DNA of 64,000 nt from an uncultured Gammaproteobacteria bacterium (GTDB lineage Bacteria > Pseudomonadota > Gammaproteobacteria > SZUA-229), in NCBI GenBank assembly GCA_963711255.1, contig CAVQDO010000023.1, positions 139,933 through 203,932 on the forward strand, in the 5' to 3' direction. The notes beneath the pieces are model-generated. The model saw only the letters and a program-made list of their open reading frames with translations. It was not told the origin of the DNA and searched no databases. Positions within the stretch are counted from its first letter, which is position 1. The number at the start of each line of letters is the position of its first letter. Positions 15,607 through 27,951 of the stretch are shown one piece after another. The translations under genes were made by a program, and so were the position numbers.

Positions 15607-16776
15607 ATGAACATGAAGGTAGCTTTGAGCATGTCAAGAATAAGTCCAGTTAAATTCTATTTTTATCTTTCACTAACGCTCATTTCCGGTTGGTCAGCAC
15701 AGTTGCAGGCAGATAATGTAATTACGGTTGGTGTTGCTCCGCATGGTGGTTACGTCATTCTTGGTGGCAGTGTTATTCCGCTTAAAGAGGTTACTCTTTC
15801 AGCACAAATGCCGGGACGCATTGTAAGTATTGCCGGTGAAGAAGGTGATGTTTTTACTGCGGGTACTGAACTGGTAAAGATAAATGATGATGATCTGCAG
15901 GCAAAGAAAGTTGCTGCCGAAGCGCAGATAAGTTCAGCCCAGAATTCTATGCAGAATGCGCAGGTTCAATACAATCGTGAATTGTGGAACCCGCGCGTTT
16001 ATAACCCGCGTCCTATGGCGGGCATGGGCATGCCTTCAATGTTTGATGGTTTTTTTGATAATGGAGTCATGCCGGGTAGTAACAGCGGCAATAAAAGCAT
16101 TGAAAGACATGCTGATCTGGTTACACAGGGAACACAGGTTTCATCATCACGTTCACAGTTGACAGAGGCAGAATCTGCTTTACGTGCTATCAATGCAAAA
16201 TTGCGAGATACCAAATCGATAGCTCCTTTTGACGGCATTATCATGCAAAAAATGATCGAGATTGGTGATACCGTTCAGCCTGGGCAGCCGCTCATCGTTT
16301 TTTCATATTCAAAATTCTTGCGTATACAGGCGGAAGTGCCGGCCAGGTTGATGCCCGGTCTGCAGAAAGGCATGGTTGTTCCGGCCAGGCTTGATGTCGG
16401 TAATACACAGATTAATGCACGTGTTGCTCAAATCTCTCCGATAGCCGATAACAAACAGCATACCGTGACGGTAAAATTTGATTTGCCTGAAGGTGTTCCT
16501 GGTGGCGCAGGGATGTATGCCGAAGTTATGATACCTGATATCAATTCACCCACTCGTGCACTGCCTGTAATACCAAAATCTGCTATCAGTAAACGAGGCA
16601 GTTTGCCTTCGGTCCAGGTACTTGATGAAAACAATGTGCCCAAGATGCGTTTGATTCGCACGGGTATCGAAATAGGTAACGATACTGTCATCGTGCTTTC
16701 CGGTATCAAACCCGGGGAAAGAATTCTGACCAATAGCGAAGAACCTAAGCCACCAATGCCATGGGGTGGCCAGTAG
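15607..16776 (+). CDS. RND efflux periplasmic adaptor (membrane fusion protein, HlyD family)
   Basis: 389 aa with an N-terminal hydrophobic anchor or signal, lipoyl-hairpin-like halves (GRIVSIAGEEGDVFTAGTELVKIND and APFDGIIMQKMIEIGDTVQPGQPLIVF), and a coiled-coil middle. Confidence 0.85.
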   Translation: MNMKVALSMSRISPVKFYFYLSLTLISGWSAQLQADNVITVGVAPHGGYVILGGSVIPLKEVTLSAQMPGRIVSIAGEEGDVFTAGTELVKINDDDLQAKKVAAEAQISSAQNSMQNAQVQYNRELWNPRVYNPRPMAGMGMPSMFDGFFDNGVMPGSNSGNKSIERHADLVTQGTQVSSSRSQLTEAESALRAINAKLRDTKSIAPFDGIIMQKMIEIGDTVQPGQPLIVFSYSKFLRIQAEVPARLMPGLQKGMVVPARLDVGNTQINARVAQISPIADNKQHTVTVKFDLPEGVPGGAGMYAEVMIPDINSPTRALPVIPKSAISKRGSLPSVQVLDENNVPKMRLIRTGIEIGNDTVIVLSGIKPGERILTNSEEPKPPMPWGGQ

Positions 16777-16933: not shown

Positions 16934-19900
16934 ATGACTGACCAATTGGATAAAGATCAAGATAAAGATAAAGATGAAGACCTGAAATGTGATGTTCCAC
17001 CATCGGCATCGATTGGCGGTAAAGATCTCGGTCTTGCCGGTAATATAGCAAAAACTTTTATTAATTCACCTGTGACTCCGATGTTGTTAATAGCAACACT
17101 GCTTATCGGAATTAGTGGTTTGATCTTCACGCCAAGACAGGAAGATCCGCAGATTTCTGTCCCTATGATAGATATCTTTGTTTCCTATCCAGGTACTTCT
17201 GCTTCGCAGGTAGAAAGTCTGGTAACCGACCCGCTAGAAAGGCTGATGGATGAAATTCCAGGCGTGCGTCATACTTTTTCTGCTACACAGCGCGGTAATG
17301 CTATCGTTACTGTGCAGTTTTACGTGGGTGAAGATCTCGGTGAATCCATTGTTAAAGTAAACGATAAAATTCGTTCGAACATGGACATGATGCCGCCCGA
17401 TGTTTTACGACCCCTGGTTAAACCGGTTGCGATTGATGATGTGCCAACTGTGGCGGTTACGCTATGGTCGAAAGAAGTTGATGATAGTACCCTGCGTATT
17501 CTTGGTAATGATGTGCTGCAGGAGCTTGGGCAGGTTGTAAATACCGGTAAAGGTTTTGTCGTTGCAGGGCGTGCTGATCAGATTCGGGTAGAGGTATTGC
17601 CTGAGCGACTGGCAGGCTACGGTATTAGTTTGCAGCAGGTGGCGGGTGCTATAACTGCGGCCAATTCGCAGCAAAATGTTGGCGCGGTTGAGGCTGGCAG
17701 TACTTCATTTACCGTGTACTCAGGTTCATTCTTGCGTACAGCTGCAGATATTGAGCGTCTGGTTGTAGGCATGAACCATGGGGCGCCCGTTTATATGCAG
17801 GATGTGGCTGAAGTGTTTCATGGCCCTGAAGACGCTAATAATATTTCTTCCTATTATGCAGGGCCGGCTTACGAAGGTATTGAGCGACCTACCGGAGATC
17901 CTGCGGTAACCATTGCGATAGCCAAAAAAGAAGGAGCAAATGGTGTAACCGTTTCAAAATCAATTTTGAAAAAACTGGAAGAATTAAAAGGCACTATCAT
18001 TCCAGATAACGTACATGTGGAGATCACGCGAGACTACGGCAAATCGGCCAATGATAAAGTTAACGAGTTGCTGAGTGCAATGTTCGAAGCGACCGCAGCT
18101 GTCGCGATATTATGTTTGATTGGTTTGGGTTTTCGAGCGGCTTTTGTAGTGGTAACCGTTATTCCTGTGGTTATCCTGATTACTATCTGGTGGGCGTGGA
18201 TGGTGGATTACACTATTGACCGCGTCAGTATGTTCGCATTGATTTTCTCTATTGGTATTCTGGTAGACGATGCCACCGTGGTGGTGGAAAATATCTTCAG
18301 GCATTGGCTCATTAAAGGGCGAACCACTCTCGCTGATGCGGTTGATGCAGTTCGTGAAGTGGGTAATCCAACTATTTTGGCGACCTTTACCATTATCGCC
18401 GCACTGTTGCCTATGGGCTGGGTGAGCGGCATGATGGGCCCCTATATGCGCCCGATTCCAGTGATGGGCGCGTCAGCCATGTTTTTCTCATTGATTGCAG
18501 CATTTATTTTTACGCCGTGGTTTGCGGTGCGCGTTCGTCCGCAGTTGGAGGCTTTGAAAAAAGCCGAGAAACGAGAAGAGAAAACTCGCAAATTTGTTGC
18601 CGCTCTTTATCGCCCTCTCATTATGCCGCTGGTAAACAGCCGCAGGCTTGGTATCTTTTTCCTGATTGGTATTATCTGTGTTACCGCGATGACAATGTTG
18701 TTATTTTACCCAACGCAGTGGGTCGCGGTGAAAATGTTGCCGTTTGATAACAAACCAGAATTCAGTGTCGTTATTAATATGCCGGAAGGAACAGCAATGC
18801 CGGTTACGGCTAACCTGGCCCATGAGCTGGCAACTGCAATTAACCAGATGCCGGAAGTAGAAGCGGTGCAGAGTTATGCGGGTACAGCACAGCCATTCAA
18901 CTTTAATGGCATGGTCAGGCACTATTATCTGCGAAAACAACCCTGGCATGGCGATTTACTGGTGATGTTGAAAGAGAAACATGAACGAGAGAAAAGCAGT
19001 CACCAGATAGCAGAAGAAGCGCGCGCTTTATTAACGCCCATAGCGCAACGCGCAGGTGGTCGTATAGCGATTGTTGAAATGCCTCCGGGTCCACCTGTAT
19101 TGCAAACCGTGGTGGCTGAAATTCATGGCCCAGACGCAAAGACGCGACGCGAAGTTGCCAGCAAAATGACAGAGTTTTTTGAAAAAGCCGGTGGTGTTGT
19201 GGATGTAGATAATTACATGAATGAGCCTTCCCAGCATTGGCGTTTCGAAGTGAATAAAGAAAAGGCGATCCGCCGTGGTGTTACTGTTGACAGCATCAAT
19301 GGAACATTGGCGATGGCAATGGGTGGTTTCAAACTGGGTGATGTGAAACGCGCCTCAGTAATAGAGCCTACTTATATTGTGATTCAGGTACCAATGGCAA
19401 CGCGTTCACAGGTTAATCAGCTAAGTAACTTGCCCATGGTGACTTCCGATGGGACTATTGCCCCTCTGGGTGAACTGGGTCGTTTTATGCTTGAGTCGAA
19501 TGAACCCATTATCTGGCACAAAGATTTGCGCGATGTTGAATTTGTTGTCGGTGAGATGGAGGGTCGTCTGGGTGCGCCGATTTACGGTATGTTCAATGTA
19601 GAAGAATTTACCGATCAGTACACCACGCCTGATGGTGTCATCATGGAAGGCATGCCAATGAACCTGATTGGTCCACCTGACAGTGACACAAATTCAGGCT
19701 TCGAGTGGACTGGCGAATGGACTGTAACTTATGAAACATTCCGTGACATGGGGATTGCATTCATGGCAGCCCTGATATTGATTTATGGTTTGATTGTCTG
19801 GGAGTTCCGTGATTTTGCACTGGCGGGCCTGATCATGTCGCCCATTCCGCTAACCATGATTGGTATCGTACCTGGACACTGGTTTCATGGCGCTGAATTT

Positions 19901-20545
19901 ACCGCTACATCGATGATCGGTATGATCGCGTTGGGTGGAATTATCGTGCGGCAATCGATTCTAATTGTCGAGTTTGTGAAGATTGAAGTAGCGAAAGGTG
20001 TTCCAGTTAAAGAAGCCGCTGTTAACGGTGCGGAAATACGTATGCGGCCGATTTTCATTACTTCACTGACCTTGATGGCAGGTGCTTTTGCTATCCTTGA
20101 CGATCCTATCTTTAACGGCATGGCGATAAGCCTGTTATGGGGCGCGGGTGTTGGCACCCTGATGGCCGTTATTGTCATCCCGATGGGTTGTATCAGCAGC
20201 CGTGAAAACTTCTATTATGAAACATCGGATTCAGGTGAACGGGTGATTAGTAGTAAATTTGAAGAAATTGAAGGGGTAAAACCTTATCTGAATAACCTGC
20301 CCGAAGCCGAGGCTGAATATAAAGTACCGCTTTGGATGCGTATTTACAGTATTATAGTCAGTATTGTCGGCTGGCTATTTGTTATTGGCCAGATGATATT
20401 TAATCTCCTGCGAATGCTGTTTGGTATGGTAGTCGGTATGTTTGGTTCTGATTCAGAACCGCCTTCACCGCCCGCATCAACACCGCCAGCATCAACGCCA
20501 CCGACTCCGGCCACCTCCAGCTCCGCCGGCATCGCCAGCTTCTGA
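16934..20545 (+). CDS. RND-superfamily efflux permease with an extra C-terminal hydrophobic helix and a Pro/Ser/Thr tail
   Basis: 1203 aa with AcrB/CzcA-type architecture: two large periplasmic loops, FSIGILVDDATVVVENIFRH and GGIIVRQSILIVEFV. After the last canonical TM comes an extra hydrophobic stretch (LWMRIYSIIVSIVGWLFVIGQMIFNLLRMLFGMVVGMF), then SEPPSPPASTPPASTPPTPATSSS. Confidence 0.88.
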   Translation: MTDQLDKDQDKDKDEDLKCDVPPSASIGGKDLGLAGNIAKTFINSPVTPMLLIATLLIGISGLIFTPRQEDPQISVPMIDIFVSYPGTSASQVESLVTDPLERLMDEIPGVRHTFSATQRGNAIVTVQFYVGEDLGESIVKVNDKIRSNMDMMPPDVLRPLVKPVAIDDVPTVAVTLWSKEVDDSTLRILGNDVLQELGQVVNTGKGFVVAGRADQIRVEVLPERLAGYGISLQQVAGAITAANSQQNVGAVEAGSTSFTVYSGSFLRTAADIERLVVGMNHGAPVYMQDVAEVFHGPEDANNISSYYAGPAYEGIERPTGDPAVTIAIAKKEGANGVTVSKSILKKLEELKGTIIPDNVHVEITRDYGKSANDKVNELLSAMFEATAAVAILCLIGLGFRAAFVVVTVIPVVILITIWWAWMVDYTIDRVSMFALIFSIGILVDDATVVVENIFRHWLIKGRTTLADAVDAVREVGNPTILATFTIIAALLPMGWVSGMMGPYMRPIPVMGASAMFFSLIAAFIFTPWFAVRVRPQLEALKKAEKREEKTRKFVAALYRPLIMPLVNSRRLGIFFLIGIICVTAMTMLLFYPTQWVAVKMLPFDNKPEFSVVINMPEGTAMPVTANLAHELATAINQMPEVEAVQSYAGTAQPFNFNGMVRHYYLRKQPWHGDLLVMLKEKHEREKSSHQIAEEARALLTPIAQRAGGRIAIVEMPPGPPVLQTVVAEIHGPDAKTRREVASKMTEFFEKAGGVVDVDNYMNEPSQHWRFEVNKEKAIRRGVTVDSINGTLAMAMGGFKLGDVKRASVIEPTYIVIQVPMATRSQVNQLSNLPMVTSDGTIAPLGELGRFMLESNEPIIWHKDLRDVEFVVGEMEGRLGAPIYGMFNVEEFTDQYTTPDGVIMEGMPMNLIGPPDSDTNSGFEWTGEWTVTYETFRDMGIAFMAALILIYGLIVWEFRDFALAGLIMSPIPLTMIGIVPGHWFHGAEFTATSMIGMIALGGIIVRQSILIVEFVKIEVAKGVPVKEAAVNGAEIRMRPIFITSLTLMAGAFAILDDPIFNGMAISLLWGAGVGTLMAVIVIPMGCISSRENFYYETSDSGERVISSKFEEIEGVKPYLNNLPEAEAEYKVPLWMRIYSIIVSIVGWLFVIGQMIFNLLRMLFGMVVGMFGSDSEPPSPPASTPPASTPPTPATSSSAGIASF

Positions 20546-21008
20546 GGTTGAGGATAAGCCGGAGAAAAAAATCACTAAAAAGTCTACAGTGACTAAAAAG
20601 AGTGCGGCTAAAAAAACAGTAGCAAAGAAAATAGCGAATAAACCAGTTGCGCCTGTAAAAAAAGCGCCTAAGAACGAGGTCCTTAAAAAAGCGGTTTCTG
20701 ATATTGAAGCGCCTGTAACGGCGGCACCTGAAAAAGCTGCTTCAGAAAAAGTCGTTCCAGAACAAGTAGTTCCAGAACAAGCTGCTCCGGAAAAAGTCGT
20801 TCCGGAAAAAGCTGCACCTGAGCAGAAAATGGTTGCCCAAAAGCCGGTTACTGTAAAGAAAGTGGCTAAGAAAAAGTCTACCACTAAAGTGGCGACTCAG
20901 GCAGCAGCTAAGCCGACGACGGTTAAAAAGATTGCTGTTAAGAAAGCACCATCGAAAAAATCACCACCAGCTGGTCGTCGCGGTATTCGATTGAAGGACG
21001 ATGGTTAA
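20442..21008 (+). CDS. Lys/Ala/Pro-rich low-complexity ORF (histone H1/TolA/TonB-spacer-like composition); start unresolved, possibly a frame-shifted continuation of the RND gene
   Basis: The frame is open from a TTG at 20442 inside the RND gene. There is no ATG or GTG near the RND stop, and the first in-frame ATG is at ~20829. The sequence reads KKSTVTKKSAAKKTVAKKIANKPVAPVKKAPK, then PEKAASEKVVPEQVVPEQAAPEKVVPEKAAPEQK. The next gene follows after 20 nt. Confidence 0.45.
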   Translation: MVLIQNRLHRPHQHRQHQRHRLRPPPAPPASPASEVEDKPEKKITKKSTVTKKSAAKKTVAKKIANKPVAPVKKAPKNEVLKKAVSDIEAPVTAAPEKAASEKVVPEQVVPEQAAPEKVVPEKAAPEQKMVAQKPVTVKKVAKKKSTTKVATQAAAKPTTVKKIAVKKAPSKKSPPAGRRGIRLKDDG

Positions 21009-21028
21009 ACCTAATAAGAGGTGTAATT

Positions 21029-21628
21029 ATGTTTTGTAACACTGGTATTGATTACGTCATAAAAGTGGCTGTAGCCGTTCTGTTGTCTCAATCATTGCTT
21101 GTATATGCAAAAGATCAGGCTATAAATGCCTCTGAACCAGTAGTGAACGCAGCACCTGAATCTAGCATTAAAGCCCGACAGCAAGTACGTGGCTTACCTC
21201 GGTGGCCTGAGCATCGGCGGTCACGCATGATGGCAGAGATGCCGCCACCACCACCATCAGGTCCTTATATGTCCTCAGCATTAAGTGGTTCTTCTATTGA
21301 AGGACTGTCATTTGATGATGATAAATCTGCAATGAAATTTGAACCTCCCGCTCAGCGGATGGAAGCATTTGGTCCAGATACTCCCTGGCCAGGTAACTCA
21401 AATTCACTTAATCGATGGGTGCCTGAAAAAGGCTATAACTATGTGCAGCCGGTTGTAAAAAAACAACCATACCCGGGTGTGCGATATGATTTTCCGGTAA
21501 ATTATACTGACGGGTATAACCGAGGTCCGGGTATGAACATGCCTGGTATGAGAGGATCTTATGTGCAAAGGCCTAACACTGCTCCACCGGGGTATAGTCG
21601 GGGATATAATGCCCCCGCACAGAGGTGA
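21029..21628 (+). CDS. Secreted Pro/Gly/Tyr/Asn/Met-rich hypothetical protein
   Basis: 199 aa with a signal-like N-terminus (VIKVAVAVLLSQSLLVYA) and an RBS agaggtg. Low-complexity C-terminal half (GYNRGPGMNMPGMRGSYVQRPNTAPPGYSRGYNAPAQR). Confidence 0.6.
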   Translation: MFCNTGIDYVIKVAVAVLLSQSLLVYAKDQAINASEPVVNAAPESSIKARQQVRGLPRWPEHRRSRMMAEMPPPPPSGPYMSSALSGSSIEGLSFDDDKSAMKFEPPAQRMEAFGPDTPWPGNSNSLNRWVPEKGYNYVQPVVKKQPYPGVRYDFPVNYTDGYNRGPGMNMPGMRGSYVQRPNTAPPGYSRGYNAPAQR

Positions 21629-22713: not shown

Positions 22714-23145
22714 ATGAAATCAGTGATAAAAATGGCTGTTTTAACTGCAGCATTAGGCTTTGCCTTAGCGCCTTTATCTGCAGCTGCAGACTTTGATATG
22801 CCATGGGACAATAACAATAACAGCAGCAATAACTGGAACAACAATAACCGATGGAACAATGATGGTTATGGATCAGGTTATGGTGATGGTTATGGTGATG
22901 GTTCTGGTGATATGGATGGCAGCTTTAACTTTGGTATGAGTGGTAAAGGAAGCGGCCGTGGTCGTGGTGATGCTCGTAACCAGTACTACGGTAACGGTAG
23001 TAACAACTGGGATAATCGTTGGGATAATAATAGCGGTTATTATAATAACCGCGGCTATGGACGTCCATATTATGGTCCAGGCCCAGGTTACGGCCCAGGT
23101 CCATATGCACAGCCACCTGCGCCACAGGCTGCACCTGCACAATAA
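22714..23145 (+). CDS. Small secreted Gly/Asn/Tyr/Trp-rich protein (structural or sulfur-globule-protein-like composition)
   Basis: 143 aa with a Sec signal MKSVIKMAVLTAALGFALAPLSAAA. By hand count the 118-aa mature part has 25 Gly, 22 Asn, 12 Tyr and 5 Trp. A strong terminator directly follows the stop. Confidence 0.7.
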   Translation: MKSVIKMAVLTAALGFALAPLSAAADFDMPWDNNNNSSNNWNNNNRWNNDGYGSGYGDGYGDGSGDMDGSFNFGMSGKGSGRGRGDARNQYYGNGSNNWDNRWDNNSGYYNNRGYGRPYYGPGPGYGPGPYAQPPAPQAAPAQ

Positions 23146-24095: not shown

Positions 24096-24722
24096 ATGTT
24101 GACAGTCGTAGGGAATTTGAAAGGGGGTACTGGCAAAAGTACCGTGGCATTTAATCTTGCTGTATGGCTGGCGCATGATAAGACTGGCGTTAGAGCGTTT
24201 GACCTTGACCCGCAATGTACATTAGTTGATGTTTGTGAGGTTCGTGAAGAAGATGGTTACGAGCCGATGTTTGATGTTTCAACAGATGTAAACGAACTTG
24301 AAGAGCTCGCGTCTGATAAAAAGAACAGGCAGCCGATTATTGTTGATATGAGCGCCAGTAATATGCCGGCCATGGAAAAGGCAATATCACTAGCGAACCG
24401 GATTTTAATTCCGGTGCAGCCCAGTCAGGCGGATATCTGGTCGACGCAACGATTTTTAAAAATCATTGCCAACAGCTTAAATGGCAATACGCCTGAAGTT
24501 CTGGGTTTTATTAATCGAGCAGATACCCATATCGGTGTTCGTGAGACGGATGAGGCGGAGCAGGCGCTACAGATGTTGCAGGGAATTAAAGCAATGGATA
24601 TTCGTCTATATCAACGTACTGCTTACCGCCGTTCGTTTAGTGAAGGATTGGGTGTGTTTGAGCTGGACCCCATGGGGAAAGCTTCAAAAGAAATGAAAAT
24701 GCTGGCTACAATGCTGGATTAA
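24096..24722 (+). CDS. ParA/MinD-family (deviant Walker A) ATPase, short orphan type
   Basis: 208 aa with VVGNLKGGTGKSTVAFNLA (KGGxxGK[ST]). No parB or plasmid/partition context. Confidence 0.85.
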   Translation: MLTVVGNLKGGTGKSTVAFNLAVWLAHDKTGVRAFDLDPQCTLVDVCEVREEDGYEPMFDVSTDVNELEELASDKKNRQPIIVDMSASNMPAMEKAISLANRILIPVQPSQADIWSTQRFLKIIANSLNGNTPEVLGFINRADTHIGVRETDEAEQALQMLQGIKAMDIRLYQRTAYRRSFSEGLGVFELDPMGKASKEMKMLATMLD

Positions 24723-24806: not shown

Positions 24807-26120
24807 ATGAAAATTATTCGTTGGTTGCTAAGTCATACTATTCTTATCCTGTTAATAATCGCGGTTATTTATGGCTATATGTTCTGGGGAAACCTTGCTG
24901 GTGAAGACACGCCAGCAGGTAAAGCGCTTGCCTACCTTTCGAATGAATTTGTAGAAGTTGAAGAGTTTATAGCATCAGTCAAAGAGAAGCAGGCCGAGCG
25001 TAATCAGGACGATTCTATGGCTAGCGCGTCCGAAGCTGAGCAGCAAGCCGATATTGGCAGCGATACCGGGGGAGATGCCGGCGAAGATGTTGCCAGCGTT
25101 GTAGCTGCTGAAGAAGACCAGGCTGCAACGACAGGGATTGCTAATACAACGCTTGCCAGCACAGCGGCTGATTCGACAAATGGCAGCGAGCTGCAACAAC
25201 AGCCGGTCAATATTAGTTATAGCCATAATGACAGGCCGGTAACACAGAATTCGTCGGCTATTAGCGAAGCCGGGTCAATGCAGCAGGGTAAAGCCTCAGC
25301 TGCAGCAGCGACAGCCTTAACATCTGCCACATCAGAAAGTAGTATGAAAAGCAATGCTGGACAGAGCAAGGCTGTGCAGAGCAATGCTGAGATGAGTAAT
25401 GCCGAGCAGGGTAAAGCCTCAGCTGCAGTAGCGACAGCCTTAACATCTGCCACATCAGAAACTAGTATGAAAAGCAATGCTGGACAGAGCAAGGCTGTGC
25501 AGAGCAACGCTGAGATGAGTAATGCCGAGCAGGGTAAAGCCTCAGCTGCAGCAGCGACAGCCTTAACATCTGCCGCATCAGAAACTAGTATGAAGAACAA
25601 TGCTGGGCAGAGCAATGCTGAGATGAGTAATGCCGAGCAGGGAAATGCCGCGTCTGGGCGAGCTCCAGGTCCAGAAAAAACACAATCTGCACAGCTGCCG
25701 CCAAAGAAAGCCAGGCAGGCATCAGGAACCTTTGTTTCAGCGGAATTAGAGAAACAGCTTAATAAAGTTGATGAGAATGGTGTTCCCGTAAAGGCGTCGC
25801 TAGCTGAAAGTGAAGTCAGAGAAAGCTGGATTTTGGCGCGCAAATCGTTTTATCTGCGTAACTATAAGCTCTCAGAAAAAAGTTATCGCAATGTTATTGA
25901 AAATACCGACGATAATTATGATGCATACGGTGAGTTAGGAAATGTTTATTTTAACCAGGGAAAGAGGCGGGAAGCAGCAGCTGCTTACTATGAAGCCGCA
26001 GCTATCTTAGTGAGAAAAGGGCAGGTAAATCGCGCAAAAAGTTTGCTTGGTTTGTTGCGTAACCTGGATAAAACAAAAGCAGACGAATTGAAAAAATTAA
26101 TTGATTCGTCTTTATCTTAA
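24807..26120 (+). CDS. Bitopic membrane protein: N-terminal TM, acidic/Ser-Ala-Thr-Asn tandem repeats, C-terminal TPR-like domain
   Basis: 437 aa. TM segment WLLSHTILILLIIAVIYGYMFWG. About three copies of a 41-aa repeat (QGKASAAAATALTSATSESSMKSNAGQSKAVQSNAEMSNAE). TPR-like C-terminus (YGELGNVYFNQGKRREAAAAYYEAAAILVRKGQVNRA). Confidence 0.75.
   Translation: MKIIRWLLSHTILILLIIAVIYGYMFWGNLAGEDTPAGKALAYLSNEFVEVEEFIASVKEKQAERNQDDSMASASEAEQQADIGSDTGGDAGEDVASVVAAEEDQAATTGIANTTLASTAADSTNGSELQQQPVNISYSHNDRPVTQNSSAISEAGSMQQGKASAAAATALTSATSESSMKSNAGQSKAVQSNAEMSNAEQGKASAAVATALTSATSETSMKSNAGQSKAVQSNAEMSNAEQGKASAAAATALTSAASETSMKNNAGQSNAEMSNAEQGNAASGRAPGPEKTQSAQLPPKKARQASGTFVSAELEKQLNKVDENGVPVKASLAESEVRESWILARKSFYLRNYKLSEKSYRNVIENTDDNYDAYGELGNVYFNQGKRREAAAAYYEAAAILVRKGQVNRAKSLLGLLRNLDKTKADELKKLIDSSLS
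25284..25637 (+). repeat. In-frame tandem repeat, 123-bp unit, 2.9 copies
   Basis: Units start at 25284, 25407 and 25530. Units 1 and 2 differ at 3 of 123 nt by eye. Unit 3 carries a 15-nt deletion plus a few substitutions. Confidence 0.9.
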
Positions 26121-26742: not shown

Positions 26743-27951
26743 ATGACAACGAATAAAACGGTAGATGATAAATCTACTGACAAGCCGGATACCACTAAAG
26801 CTTCCACGGCTAAAAGTGACACAGCTGCTAAAAGTAAAAGCACTGCTAATAAAGCCAGTGAAACGACGGTTAAGAAAGAGTCGGCGACTGTCGCAGCTAA
26901 AAAAGATTCAGCTGCAGTAGCCGATAAGTCCGCAGCTAAAAAAGATTCAACTGCACAGAAAACTTCTGTGGCTAATGAAGATGTGATAAGCAAGACTACT
27001 GCCGCAACACAGAAGGCGGCTGCTTCAAAAGAATCTGATATGAAAGCGGCGGTGAAGAAGATTAGCGAACTGGATAAAATTGCCGCCGATAATGCGATTA
27101 AGTCAAAAAAAGGCGCCGAAGATTTAAAAGCACGTGCACATGAAGCCAGGTTACGCGCCCAGGAAAAGATACTTGAAAAGTCATACGTCAGTGATCCGCC
27201 AGAAGACCCGTTGGAACGTCTGGCTAATACCTTTGACAACAGTGCCAGGCGCTGGGAAATGGTGGTTTACCCGTCATTATTTGCCTTTGTACTGTTAGCA
27301 GGTTATGGCTTCTTCCTGATCTATCGACTAACGCATGATATTGCCGTATTGTCGCAATCCGTAACACATATGGCGGTTATTGTTTCTGATGCCATGCCGC
27401 GTATGACCAAGGATTTAAATTTGATGACCGGCAGTATTGATAATATGACGGGTAATATTGATGGTATGTCGACAGAAATCAGTTCGATGTCTGGCCAGAT
27501 GAACAGTCTGACGCCAATGAGTAAAAATATAAGTAGTATGACGCATAACATTGGCAGCATGAATCGTTCAGTATATGGCATGCAGCGTGATATCGGTGGC
27601 ATGAACCGTACCGTATCCAGTGGCCCGTTGGGTATGATGAACGATGTTATGCCGTTTAGTTCTTCATCGAATGTACCGCAACCTCTGGCACCATCGCCTG
27701 TGTGGCCGGCTTATAATCCAGCACCCTATAATTACGGGGCACCGAATATGCAAAACCAAAGGCAAAACCAGAGACCTGCGGCTAGAAGCACACCCAAGCC
27801 TGCTGCCAAGCCACAGCCTGTAGCAAAGCCAAAGGCTGTGGAAGAGGCAGAAGTAGCGTTAAAAAAAAAGCCGCTAAGTTCGTTGCCGCCACTCAATAGT
27901 AAACAGCTGTCTACCCCGCTAAAGAAATTTAGCAGTGAAGATTTGAAGTAA
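26743..27951 (+). CDS. Bitopic membrane protein with a Lys/Ala/Ser/Thr-rich N-half, Met-phased heptad repeats and a Pro-rich C-terminus
   Basis: 402 aa; the start is 1 nt after the upstream stop. TM segment WEMVVYPSLFAFVLLAGYGFFLIY. Ten heptads M-x3-(I/V/M/L)-x2: MTKDLNL MTGSIDN MTGNIDG MSTEISS MSGQMNS (LTP) MSKNISS MTHNIGS MNRSVYG MQRDIGG MNRTVSS. Confidence 0.7.
   Translation: MTTNKTVDDKSTDKPDTTKASTAKSDTAAKSKSTANKASETTVKKESATVAAKKDSAAVADKSAAKKDSTAQKTSVANEDVISKTTAATQKAAASKESDMKAAVKKISELDKIAADNAIKSKKGAEDLKARAHEARLRAQEKILEKSYVSDPPEDPLERLANTFDNSARRWEMVVYPSLFAFVLLAGYGFFLIYRLTHDIAVLSQSVTHMAVIVSDAMPRMTKDLNLMTGSIDNMTGNIDGMSTEISSMSGQMNSLTPMSKNISSMTHNIGSMNRSVYGMQRDIGGMNRTVSSGPLGMMNDVMPFSSSSNVPQPLAPSPVWPAYNPAPYNYGAPNMQNQRQNQRPAARSTPKPAAKPQPVAKPKAVEEAEVALKKKPLSSLPPLNSKQLSTPLKKFSSEDLK

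Follow-up and report, generated by a model that had tools for sequence, protein, structure and literature searches.

A tail-bearing RND permease gene split by one extra base, and its C-terminal tag as a putative partner of a ParA-like ATPase

Background

The locus considered here raises the question of whether one gene or two are encoded between positions 16934 and 21008 of a 64,000-nucleotide stretch of an uncultured gammaproteobacterial genome (assembly GCA_963711255.1, contig CAVQDO010000023.1; the whole stretch is called the window), and of what the unusual end of the encoded protein may do. An open reading frame (ORF) for a permease of the resistance-nodulation-division (RND) superfamily carries an extra hydrophobic helix and a Pro/Ser/Thr-rich linker, and is followed, out of frame, by a continuation reaching position 21008. 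This layout, described in the initial annotation, was confirmed by analysis of the ORFs and frames. The best explanation overall, which we regard as probable, is that a tail-bearing RND gene has been split, that its tail is cytoplasmic, and that a short tag at the end of the tail, RRGIRLK, contacts a ParA-like ATPase encoded nearby.

One frame in relatives, two in the window

A search of 30 related genomes identified the orthologous pump as one open frame of 1270-1397 amino acids (aa) in at least 15 genomes of the same genus, with 84-91% identity to the window pump. Each of these same-genus frames reads, in this order, through pump, helix, Pro-rich linker and Lys-rich tail, and ends in ...KKAPSKK..P.GRRGIRLKD[DE]. 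The same architecture is found in 81 clusters of a large protein database (1249-1412 aa), named merely 'efflux RND permease' or 'AcrB'; pump, helix, linker and tail likewise share a single ORF in many other sulfur oxidisers. Every relative examined has the parts in one frame, except for another split copy at locus L157.

In the window assembly the tail-bearing pump is not a single ORF, the frame being broken within the linker (Table 1). When the linker DNA was aligned with that of five relatives (L002-L005 among them), the window showed a net gain of one base at CCGGCC. Deletion of the base at 20511 produces a single frame of 1357 aa, matching the 1348-1368 aa of the orthologues. The +1 frame, which remains open between 20442 and 21008, encodes PPPAPPASPASEVEDKPEKK...KKAPSKKSPPAGRRGIRLKDDG; it stays intact over 188 codons and retains the tag. 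Since the last 22 tail residues are near-identical to the C-termini of dozens of full-length orthologues, the observed tail frame is more than a chance opening.

The frameshift site is spanned by Logan contigs from three unrelated metagenome runs, each belonging to a close relative, and two of these contigs are 97-100% identical to the window there; among the runs searched, the largest shares of the genome contained were 0.51 and 0.17. The contig of a first sediment run (X1) has one base fewer at 20511 and is otherwise 100% identical over 20490-20641, that of a second sediment run (X2) has five additional bases after 20510, and that of a microbial mat from a different study (X5) has one base fewer at 20509. 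Each of these differences (-1, +5 and -1) restores the frame. Over 16 kb, the X1 sequence and the window show ~99.5% identity, with a few substitutions per kilobase and the frameshift site as the sole indel.

On these sequence comparisons, positions 16934-21008 are judged to be one gene, for a tail-bearing RND permease of ~1357 aa, split by one extra base. The idea of the initial annotation that the two frames belong together, one base apart, is thus borne out, both by orthologues and by the three metagenome contigs; in the orthologues the Lys-rich part is in frame with the pump, and a conserved two-frame layout with a real start codon and ribosome binding site is not seen. The extra base in CCGGCC may have arisen in the cells, as a recent mutation, or only during assembly; the linker is repeat-rich and variable among strains. 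Any real mutation would be very recent, since the +1 frame is intact over its 188 codons and the ParA gene is intact too. For annotation, the locus should be treated as one frameshifted or misassembled gene, rather than as a pump followed by an orphan basic ORF. If the frameshift is real, the pump of this strain would be tag-less, like the naturally tail-less pumps of L030 and L061, whose frames end shortly past the helix; it would probably still transport, yet be uncoupled from ParA.

Broken copies were also noted in related genomes. At L157 (G302:C6:301705-321704, in a 10-contig assembly) the RND ORF stops at 1152 aa, just past the helix, and a separate downstream frame of 100 codons ends in ...KKKASARRGIKLKPLDDE, which resembles another frameshift. 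A same-genus orthologue (G005:C44:58179-61752) is broken near residue 295, at a TGA, and gives two overlapping matches, which suggests indel or stop errors, or pseudogenes, in related metagenome-assembled genomes (MAGs). The two cases indicate that such breaks do occur in these assemblies.

Structure and conservation of the C-terminal extension

The Pfam ACR_tran profile (PF00873) matches pump residues 38-1052 with 465 bits, against a cutoff of 28, and places the protein in the RND superfamily. The top NCBIfam match, RND_permease_2, scores 415 bits against a cutoff of 1250; the remaining subfamily and equivalog matches are also below their cutoffs, and none of the named HAE1, HME or MdtB/C groups is assigned by NCBIfam. 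The nearest solved relative is TriC (6vej), and the core alignment reaches approximately residue 1095. The last of the 12 regular transmembrane (TM) helices, TM12, corresponds to PMGC at residue 1083; about 48 acidic residues separate it from the extra helix, PLWMRIYSIIVSIVGWLFVIGQMIFNLLRMLFGMVVGMF, after which the linker begins with GSDSEPPSPPASTPPASTPPTPA. At the other end of the protein (window 16934-17040), an unusually charged cytoplasmic extension, MTDQLDKDQDKDKDEDLKCDVPP..., is conserved within the genus as MTDE[LF]DK[DN]Q.

The window tail is colinear with the tails of the orthologues, and all three parts (helix, linker and tag) are present within 20327-21005. In an alignment of 73 sequences, the near-invariant positions beyond the core comprise Y, K, P, L, W, M and Y where the helix begins, a single W within it, and a terminal P..K.....RRGIR.K. 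The R, R, G, I, R and K of the tag are each at least 90% conserved; the consensus is [KR]RGI[RKQ][LIV]K, and the conserved C-terminal stretch measures merely 7-20 residues.

Length and sequence of the linker vary even among close relatives. In the window a 15-nt repeat is present in 5.7 copies at 20730-20815, in addition to the tandem 15-nt array at 20466-20496. In two loci of the same genus (L005 and L010) the tail linker contains long perfect (KPKAEA)n arrays, with a copy number that depends on the species. From such sequences, the tail linker appears to evolve through repeat expansion and contraction. The net charge of the tail ranges from -12 to +44 across the family, and three members (P0080-P0082) have acidic Ala/Pro/Glu-rich linkers, still ending in RKRRGIRLKQDL; Lys richness is therefore lineage-specific, not a conserved function.

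The orthologue P0037 was modelled over residues 78-1277 by AlphaFold2, with the above alignment as input. The mean predicted local distance difference test score (pLDDT) was 66, and secondary structure and pLDDT were used. The hydrophobic segment is predicted as one continuous 38-residue helix (pLDDT ~72), everything beyond it as disordered (pLDDT below 35), and no folded C-terminal domain is seen. In the intact protein, the disordered linker spans about 100-330 residues, its length and charge both varying.

RRGIRLK is the only C-terminal motif of its kind in the genome. A sorting signal shared with a second protein was considered and rejected, the other RRGIRL being internal to an unrelated frame of 434 residues.

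Association of the tag with a ParA-like ATPase

The gene listed in Table 1 as the inferred partner of the tag encodes a small ATPase, for which the NCBIfam ParA_partition profile gives 130 bits, below its cutoff of 180; the nearest solved structures are those of ParF, the ParA of TP228 (4dzz and 5u1g). A scan of named genomes returned orthologues of the pump in Sedimenticola, a Thioalkalispiraceae MAG, Thiorhodococcus, Thiomargarita, Chromatium okenii, Candidatus Thiodiazotropha, Halochromatium, Thiofilum, Thiothrix and others. Neighbourhoods were tabulated for 33 orthologous loci that extend 7 kb or more downstream. A ParA gene was nearby in all 22 tagged loci and in none of the 11 untagged ones. 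In two of the genomes lacking the tag (L037 and L061) the gene for a dynamin-like GTPase is kept and the whole genome contains no ParA orthologue; L037 additionally keeps the genes for orf269, the tetratricopeptide repeat (TPR) protein and orf402, other members of the cluster.

Two kinds of apparent exception were examined and rejected. Six genomes seemed to combine a ParA orthologue with a tail-less pump, and proved to hold a second, tagged RND gene beside ParA. In G036, what was taken at first for a tailed pump lacking ParA is a tag-less frame of 1315 aa, spuriously open because the DNA is GC-rich.

A maximum-likelihood tree of pump cores (58 rows) shows at least 5 switches in the state of the tag, and ParA adjacency is concordant with it in all five independent pairs. 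Adjacency of the dynamin-like gene does not follow the tag.

The association was also evaluated in 301 genomes drawn evenly across the class, by using a cut-off of E <= 1e-40 for ParA orthologues. Such an orthologue was found in 44 genomes, roughly one in seven, at least 37 of which contain a tagged RND protein, with the strict motif or a variant (HRGIRLK, KRGIRLK, RKGIRLK, RRGIQLK, RRGIKLK, WRGIRLN or RRGIRIK); the rest are mostly limited by contig ends. The tagged pump usually lies 1-5 kb upstream of ParA, on the same strand. A class-wide DNA pattern search located RRGIRLK at the C-terminus of an RND protein in 21 loci and at the end of no other protein. The pattern was degenerate, and of the 30 loci returned 7 were noise (Ser codons, random sites) and 2 were chance occurrences of RRGIRLK, matching the control rate. 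Genomic coupling of the tagged pump to a cognate ParA/MinD ATPase is found with the exception of genome G151.

The locus of that genome (L159, G151:C1:440000-459999) has a perfect RRGIRLK; its orf269-like protein is directly followed by the TPR protein, which carries a long (AAPET)n repeat, and a ParA-like gene is located on another contig.

Location of the tail

The C-terminus of TM12 is cytoplasmic in AcrB-type pumps. Hydrophobicity was estimated as a crude sum of Hessa-scale values over the best 19-residue window. On this scale the window copy gives +0.8 kcal/mol and the genus ranges from -2.0 to +1.7, against -3.2 to +0.4 for the core TM helices; the extra helix of this genus would probably be classed as TM by a standard predictor.

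Other members of the family have quite different segments at this place. In a Hydrogenovibrio MAG (L059) the hydrophobic segment is missing altogether (+17.6), and both the tag and the ParA neighbour are retained. Segments that are amphipathic, with K, R, D, E and N throughout, are found in L033 (+10.2), L032 (+6.9), L063, L060, L025 and L045; that of L052 is charged and amphipathic, tag and ParA being kept, and the Chromatiaceae copies have E, R, D and K on one helical face. In many copies the helix is immediately followed by a basic cluster (RRLLQRRRS, WRKSRKS, KPKKAKR). Linker, tag and ParA neighbour are retained in every one of these variants. Since TM12 ends in the cytoplasm, tails that follow an amphipathic segment, or no hydrophobic segment, must be cytoplasmic, and the shared tag leads one to expect the same compartment for all copies.

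In the helix of the window itself, one position in every 3-4 along the 38 residues is polar or small (R, S, S, G, Q, N, R, G, G), and the hydrophobic moment of the extra helix is 0.23-0.33, compared with 0.01-0.19 for core TM helices. Such a polar stripe, together with the higher moment, is more in keeping with a helix that lies in the plane of the membrane or packs on the pump than with one that spans the bilayer. Most likely, then, the 38-residue helix is located in or on the cytoplasmic leaflet, or packs against the pump, and does not pass through the membrane; for the window's own copy, too, a cytoplasmic tail is the likeliest case, as argued from the sequences of its relatives.

Proposed role and alternative explanations

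Partners of ParA/MinD ATPases engage the ATPase via a positively charged, disordered terminal peptide, and the remainder either attaches to the cargo or itself constitutes it (bioRxiv 10.1101/2022.06.09.495121). The end of the tail, KKAPSKKSPPAGRRGIRLKDDG, has these features, being short, positively charged, disordered and terminal, and we infer that the tag is a putative ParA partner peptide. In the mechanism proposed, the intact core would be a standard 12-TM unit of the AcrB/TriC type, working with the adjacent adaptor, and a short structured acidic segment would link this core to the 38-residue helix. The tag would be a contact peptide, recruiting or stimulating the small ParF-like ParA ATPase encoded 3 kb downstream, much as the basic disordered peptides of ParB, ParG, McdB and MinE act on their ATPases. 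The long disordered linker would let the membrane-embedded pump reach the ATPase on its matrix, and the pump, perhaps with neighbouring envelope and sulfur-globule proteins, could thereby be spaced or positioned along the cell.

If the tag binds the ATPase, the cargos of ParA/MinD systems would extend to a polytopic transporter, the partner peptide being C-terminal and located on the cargo itself. It is also conceivable, though rather doubtful, that the tagged RND-adaptor complex is a trans-envelope handle by which ParA positions periplasmic sulfur globules, the hypervariable, repeat-bearing linker, which is broken here and in a second genome, tuning the reach or uncoupling the pump. Were it true, a ParA/MinD system would act on a cargo beyond the membrane, and the tail would span the gap between inner membrane and ParA matrix. 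To our knowledge, an RND pump that carries its own tag for a ParA/MinD ATPase has no precedent. Literature searches returned none, and nothing specific to the pump, the tag or the cluster; RRGIRL as a protein motif was found in no searchable paper, and no papers linking RND pumps, ParA-like ATPases and sulfur oxidisers were retrieved. The tag gives a testable entry to a conserved, undescribed cluster, made of pump, sulfur-globule-like proteins, ParA and dynamin-like GTPase; carriers of ParA and tagged pump include Chromatium okenii, Thiothrix, Thiomargarita, Sedimenticola and Candidatus Thiodiazotropha.

Several points weigh against a cytoplasmic, ParA-contacting tail. The link between tag and ParA rests on co-occurrence, and a sign test on the tree gives only p = 0.06, the best value reachable with 5 pairs. 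Known ParA partner peptides are N-terminal (ParG, the partner of ParF, acts via a flexible basic N-terminal tail), unlike that of the pump, which is C-terminal. The G151 cluster has a tagged RND gene but no ParA, with only a 37%-identical ParA-like gene elsewhere in the genome, and tag and ParA are non-adjacent in G052 and G147 (81 kb apart in G147); G157, also listed among the exceptions, is an incomplete genome. The reliance on co-occurrence, the G151 cluster and the C-terminal position of the tag would also suit a cytoplasmic tail whose tag does not contact ParA, and binds instead nucleoid DNA, polyphosphate, the dynamin-like GTPase or the N-terminus of the 402-aa protein of the cluster, or serves as a signal for degradation or regulation, ParA co-occurring merely through serving the same cellular structure. 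A weak match of the Lys-rich linker to the histone-like HC2 family also points this way. We consider this unlikely: tag and ParA are gained and lost together in five pairs out of five, the dynamin, TPR, orf269 and orf402 genes persist without them, and the acidic linkers of P0080-P0082 imply that general binding of DNA or polyphosphate is not a conserved function of the linker. Two further points concern the membrane. On the crude scale, the helix of this genus is on a par with true TM helices in hydrophobicity, and the acidic residues that follow it (GSDSE) fit a TM helix with its N-terminus inside and its C-terminus outside.

A true 13th TM helix would make the tail a periplasmic spacer of the TonB/TolA type, directed to the outer membrane, the peptidoglycan or a sulfur-globule coat, and the initial annotation raised a periplasmic tail of this kind, of note to it because no outer-membrane factor gene accompanies the pump. 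Besides the TM-like best window, the K/R before the helix and the D/E after it, the single and straight AlphaFold2 helix (with no hairpin), the Pro-rich charged composition, which recalls TonB and TolA, and the secreted sulfur-globule-like proteins encoded directly downstream are in agreement with it. It is nevertheless very unlikely, because the helix-less L059 and the charged amphipathic orthologues cannot place a tagged tail outside the cytoplasm, many lineages have basic clusters past the helix, the tag tracks a cytoplasmic ATPase, the model has no folded C-terminal domain, and the helix has a continuous polar stripe and a moment above that of core TM helices. The lack of a neighbouring outer-membrane factor gene is no argument for such a tail, since four proteins of the OEP/TolC family are encoded elsewhere in the genome. 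Least probable of all, to the point of being hardly credible, is that the two-frame layout is functional, the frames being joined by programmed +1 ribosomal frameshifting or the tail being a separate histone-like gene. The +1 frame is indeed intact through the overlap, and UUC UGA G at the stop codon formally permits a prfB-like +1 slip. No Shine-Dalgarno-like stimulator or good slippery codon is seen on reading 20442-20545, though, and neither a slippery site nor a conserved two-frame layout is found; nearly all relatives, and the three close environmental ones, are plainly in frame. As for a separate gene, the TTG noted in the initial annotation as the only candidate start of the tail frame (20442) stands as a candidate, and a GTG at 20589 had been overlooked; there are no others. 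Starting at the TTG would prepend 25 nonsense residues, LVLIQNRLHRPHQHRQHQRHRLR, no Shine-Dalgarno-like sequence is seen before the GTG, and a scan of 20200-21200 found no promoter-like site. A stand-alone tail protein was seen in no locus, the split at L157 looking like another frameshift, and the former suggestion of a histone-H1/AlgP-like protein finds no support in the Lys richness, which is not conserved, or in the Pfam HC2 profile (PF07382), which scores 27.3 bits on the window tail (E = 4.7e-6), below its cutoff of 40.

Comparison with known systems

Like RND proteins of the HAE1 type (TriC of TriABC, 6vej; AcrB, MexB, MdtB/C), the pump has a 12-TM core, two large periplasmic loops and a paired adaptor gene. 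Unlike any solved RND protein, it has a C-terminal extension of 170-400 residues, made of helix, disordered linker and RRGIRLK, and it differs from them also by clustering with sulfur-globule-like proteins, ParA and a dynamin-like GTPase. With the partners of ParA/MinD ATPases (ParB, ParG of TP228, McdB, MinE, PomX, TlpT) it shares a terminal peptide that is short, basic and disordered, carried by cargo or adaptor, and a gene that is usually beside that of the ATPase; here the peptide ends a polytopic membrane transporter, instead of forming the N-terminus of a soluble adaptor. The tag is unlike the motif of the genome's own ParB, KKKGLGRGLTALL. The chromosomal ParB (contig C35, ~208271, minus strand) begins with MAAKKKGLGRGLTALL, the classical ParA-contact motif, distinct from RRGIRLK of the pump.

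TonB and TolA likewise combine a hydrophobic anchor with Pro-rich and Lys/Glu/Ala-rich low-complexity sequence. Their anchor is N-terminal and their C-terminus is folded, whereas the anchor of the pump follows a 12-TM protein and the chain ends in an unfolded peptide of 7 residues, with no folded domain for partner contact; some orthologues of the pump have no anchor. To histone H1-like basic proteins (Chlamydia Hc2, AlgP, the C-terminal domain of PhaF) the window tail is similar in being rich in K, A, P and V; in contrast to them, it is part of a pump gene, and its basic composition is not conserved in the family.

Genes around the pump

The coordinates of the features discussed are collected in Table 1. 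The pump belongs to a conserved cluster, located between epmA and psd, in which the adaptor and the tailed pump are followed by three to four small secreted G/Y/N/P-rich proteins, the signal-peptide protein orf269, the 208-aa ParA-like ATPase, a protein with a TM helix, acidic repeats and TPR, a DUF302 protein, a 402-aa bitopic protein (orf402) and a dynamin-like GTPase. The adaptor gene adjoins the RND gene in nearly all orthologous loci having upstream sequence.

Table 1. Features of the pump locus, in window coordinates
Feature	Position	Strand	Remarks
Membrane-fusion (periplasmic adaptor) protein of the pump	15607..16776	+	389 aa; Pfam HlyD_3, HlyD_D23; NCBIfam RND_mfp 155 bits
RND permease ORF as assembled	16934..20545	+	1203 aa; ACR_tran 465 bits; last 11 codons (from ~20512) out-of-frame nonsense, TSSSAGIASF-stop
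Extra hydrophobic/amphipathic helix after TM12	20327..20443	+	residues 1132-1170, PLWMRIY...GMVVGMF
Pro/Ser/Thr-rich linker, hypervariable	20444..20511	+	holds 15-nt tandem repeat 20466-20496
Frameshift site	20509..20512	+	one extra base in CCGGCC relative to relatives
+1-frame tail	20512..21008	+	disordered Lys/Ala/Val/Pro/Glu-rich linker, 154 aa, net charge +24, plus tag; stop 21006-21008
C-terminal tag RRGIRLK	20976..20996	+	within ...KKAPSKKSPPAGRRGIRLKDDG
ParA-like ATPase, inferred partner of the tag	24096..24722	+	208 aa; deviant Walker A GNLKGGTGKST; ~3 kb downstream of the pump

Three successive genes lie between 21029 and 23145; their products have signal peptides and abound in G, Y, N, P and Q. 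The composition of the third (22714-23145) is like that of a sulfur-globule protein, and similar genes are found after the pump in most orthologous loci. In the protein encoded after ParA (24807-26120), an N-terminal TM helix is joined by some 280 residues of Ser/Ala/Thr/Asn-rich repeats, and the C-terminus is TPR-like. The 402-aa protein (26743-27951) has a disordered Lys/Ala/Ser/Thr-rich N-terminus, one TM helix and Met-rich heptads. It is conceivable that this N-terminus is another ParA partner peptide; the persistence of the gene in loci lacking ParA counts against it.

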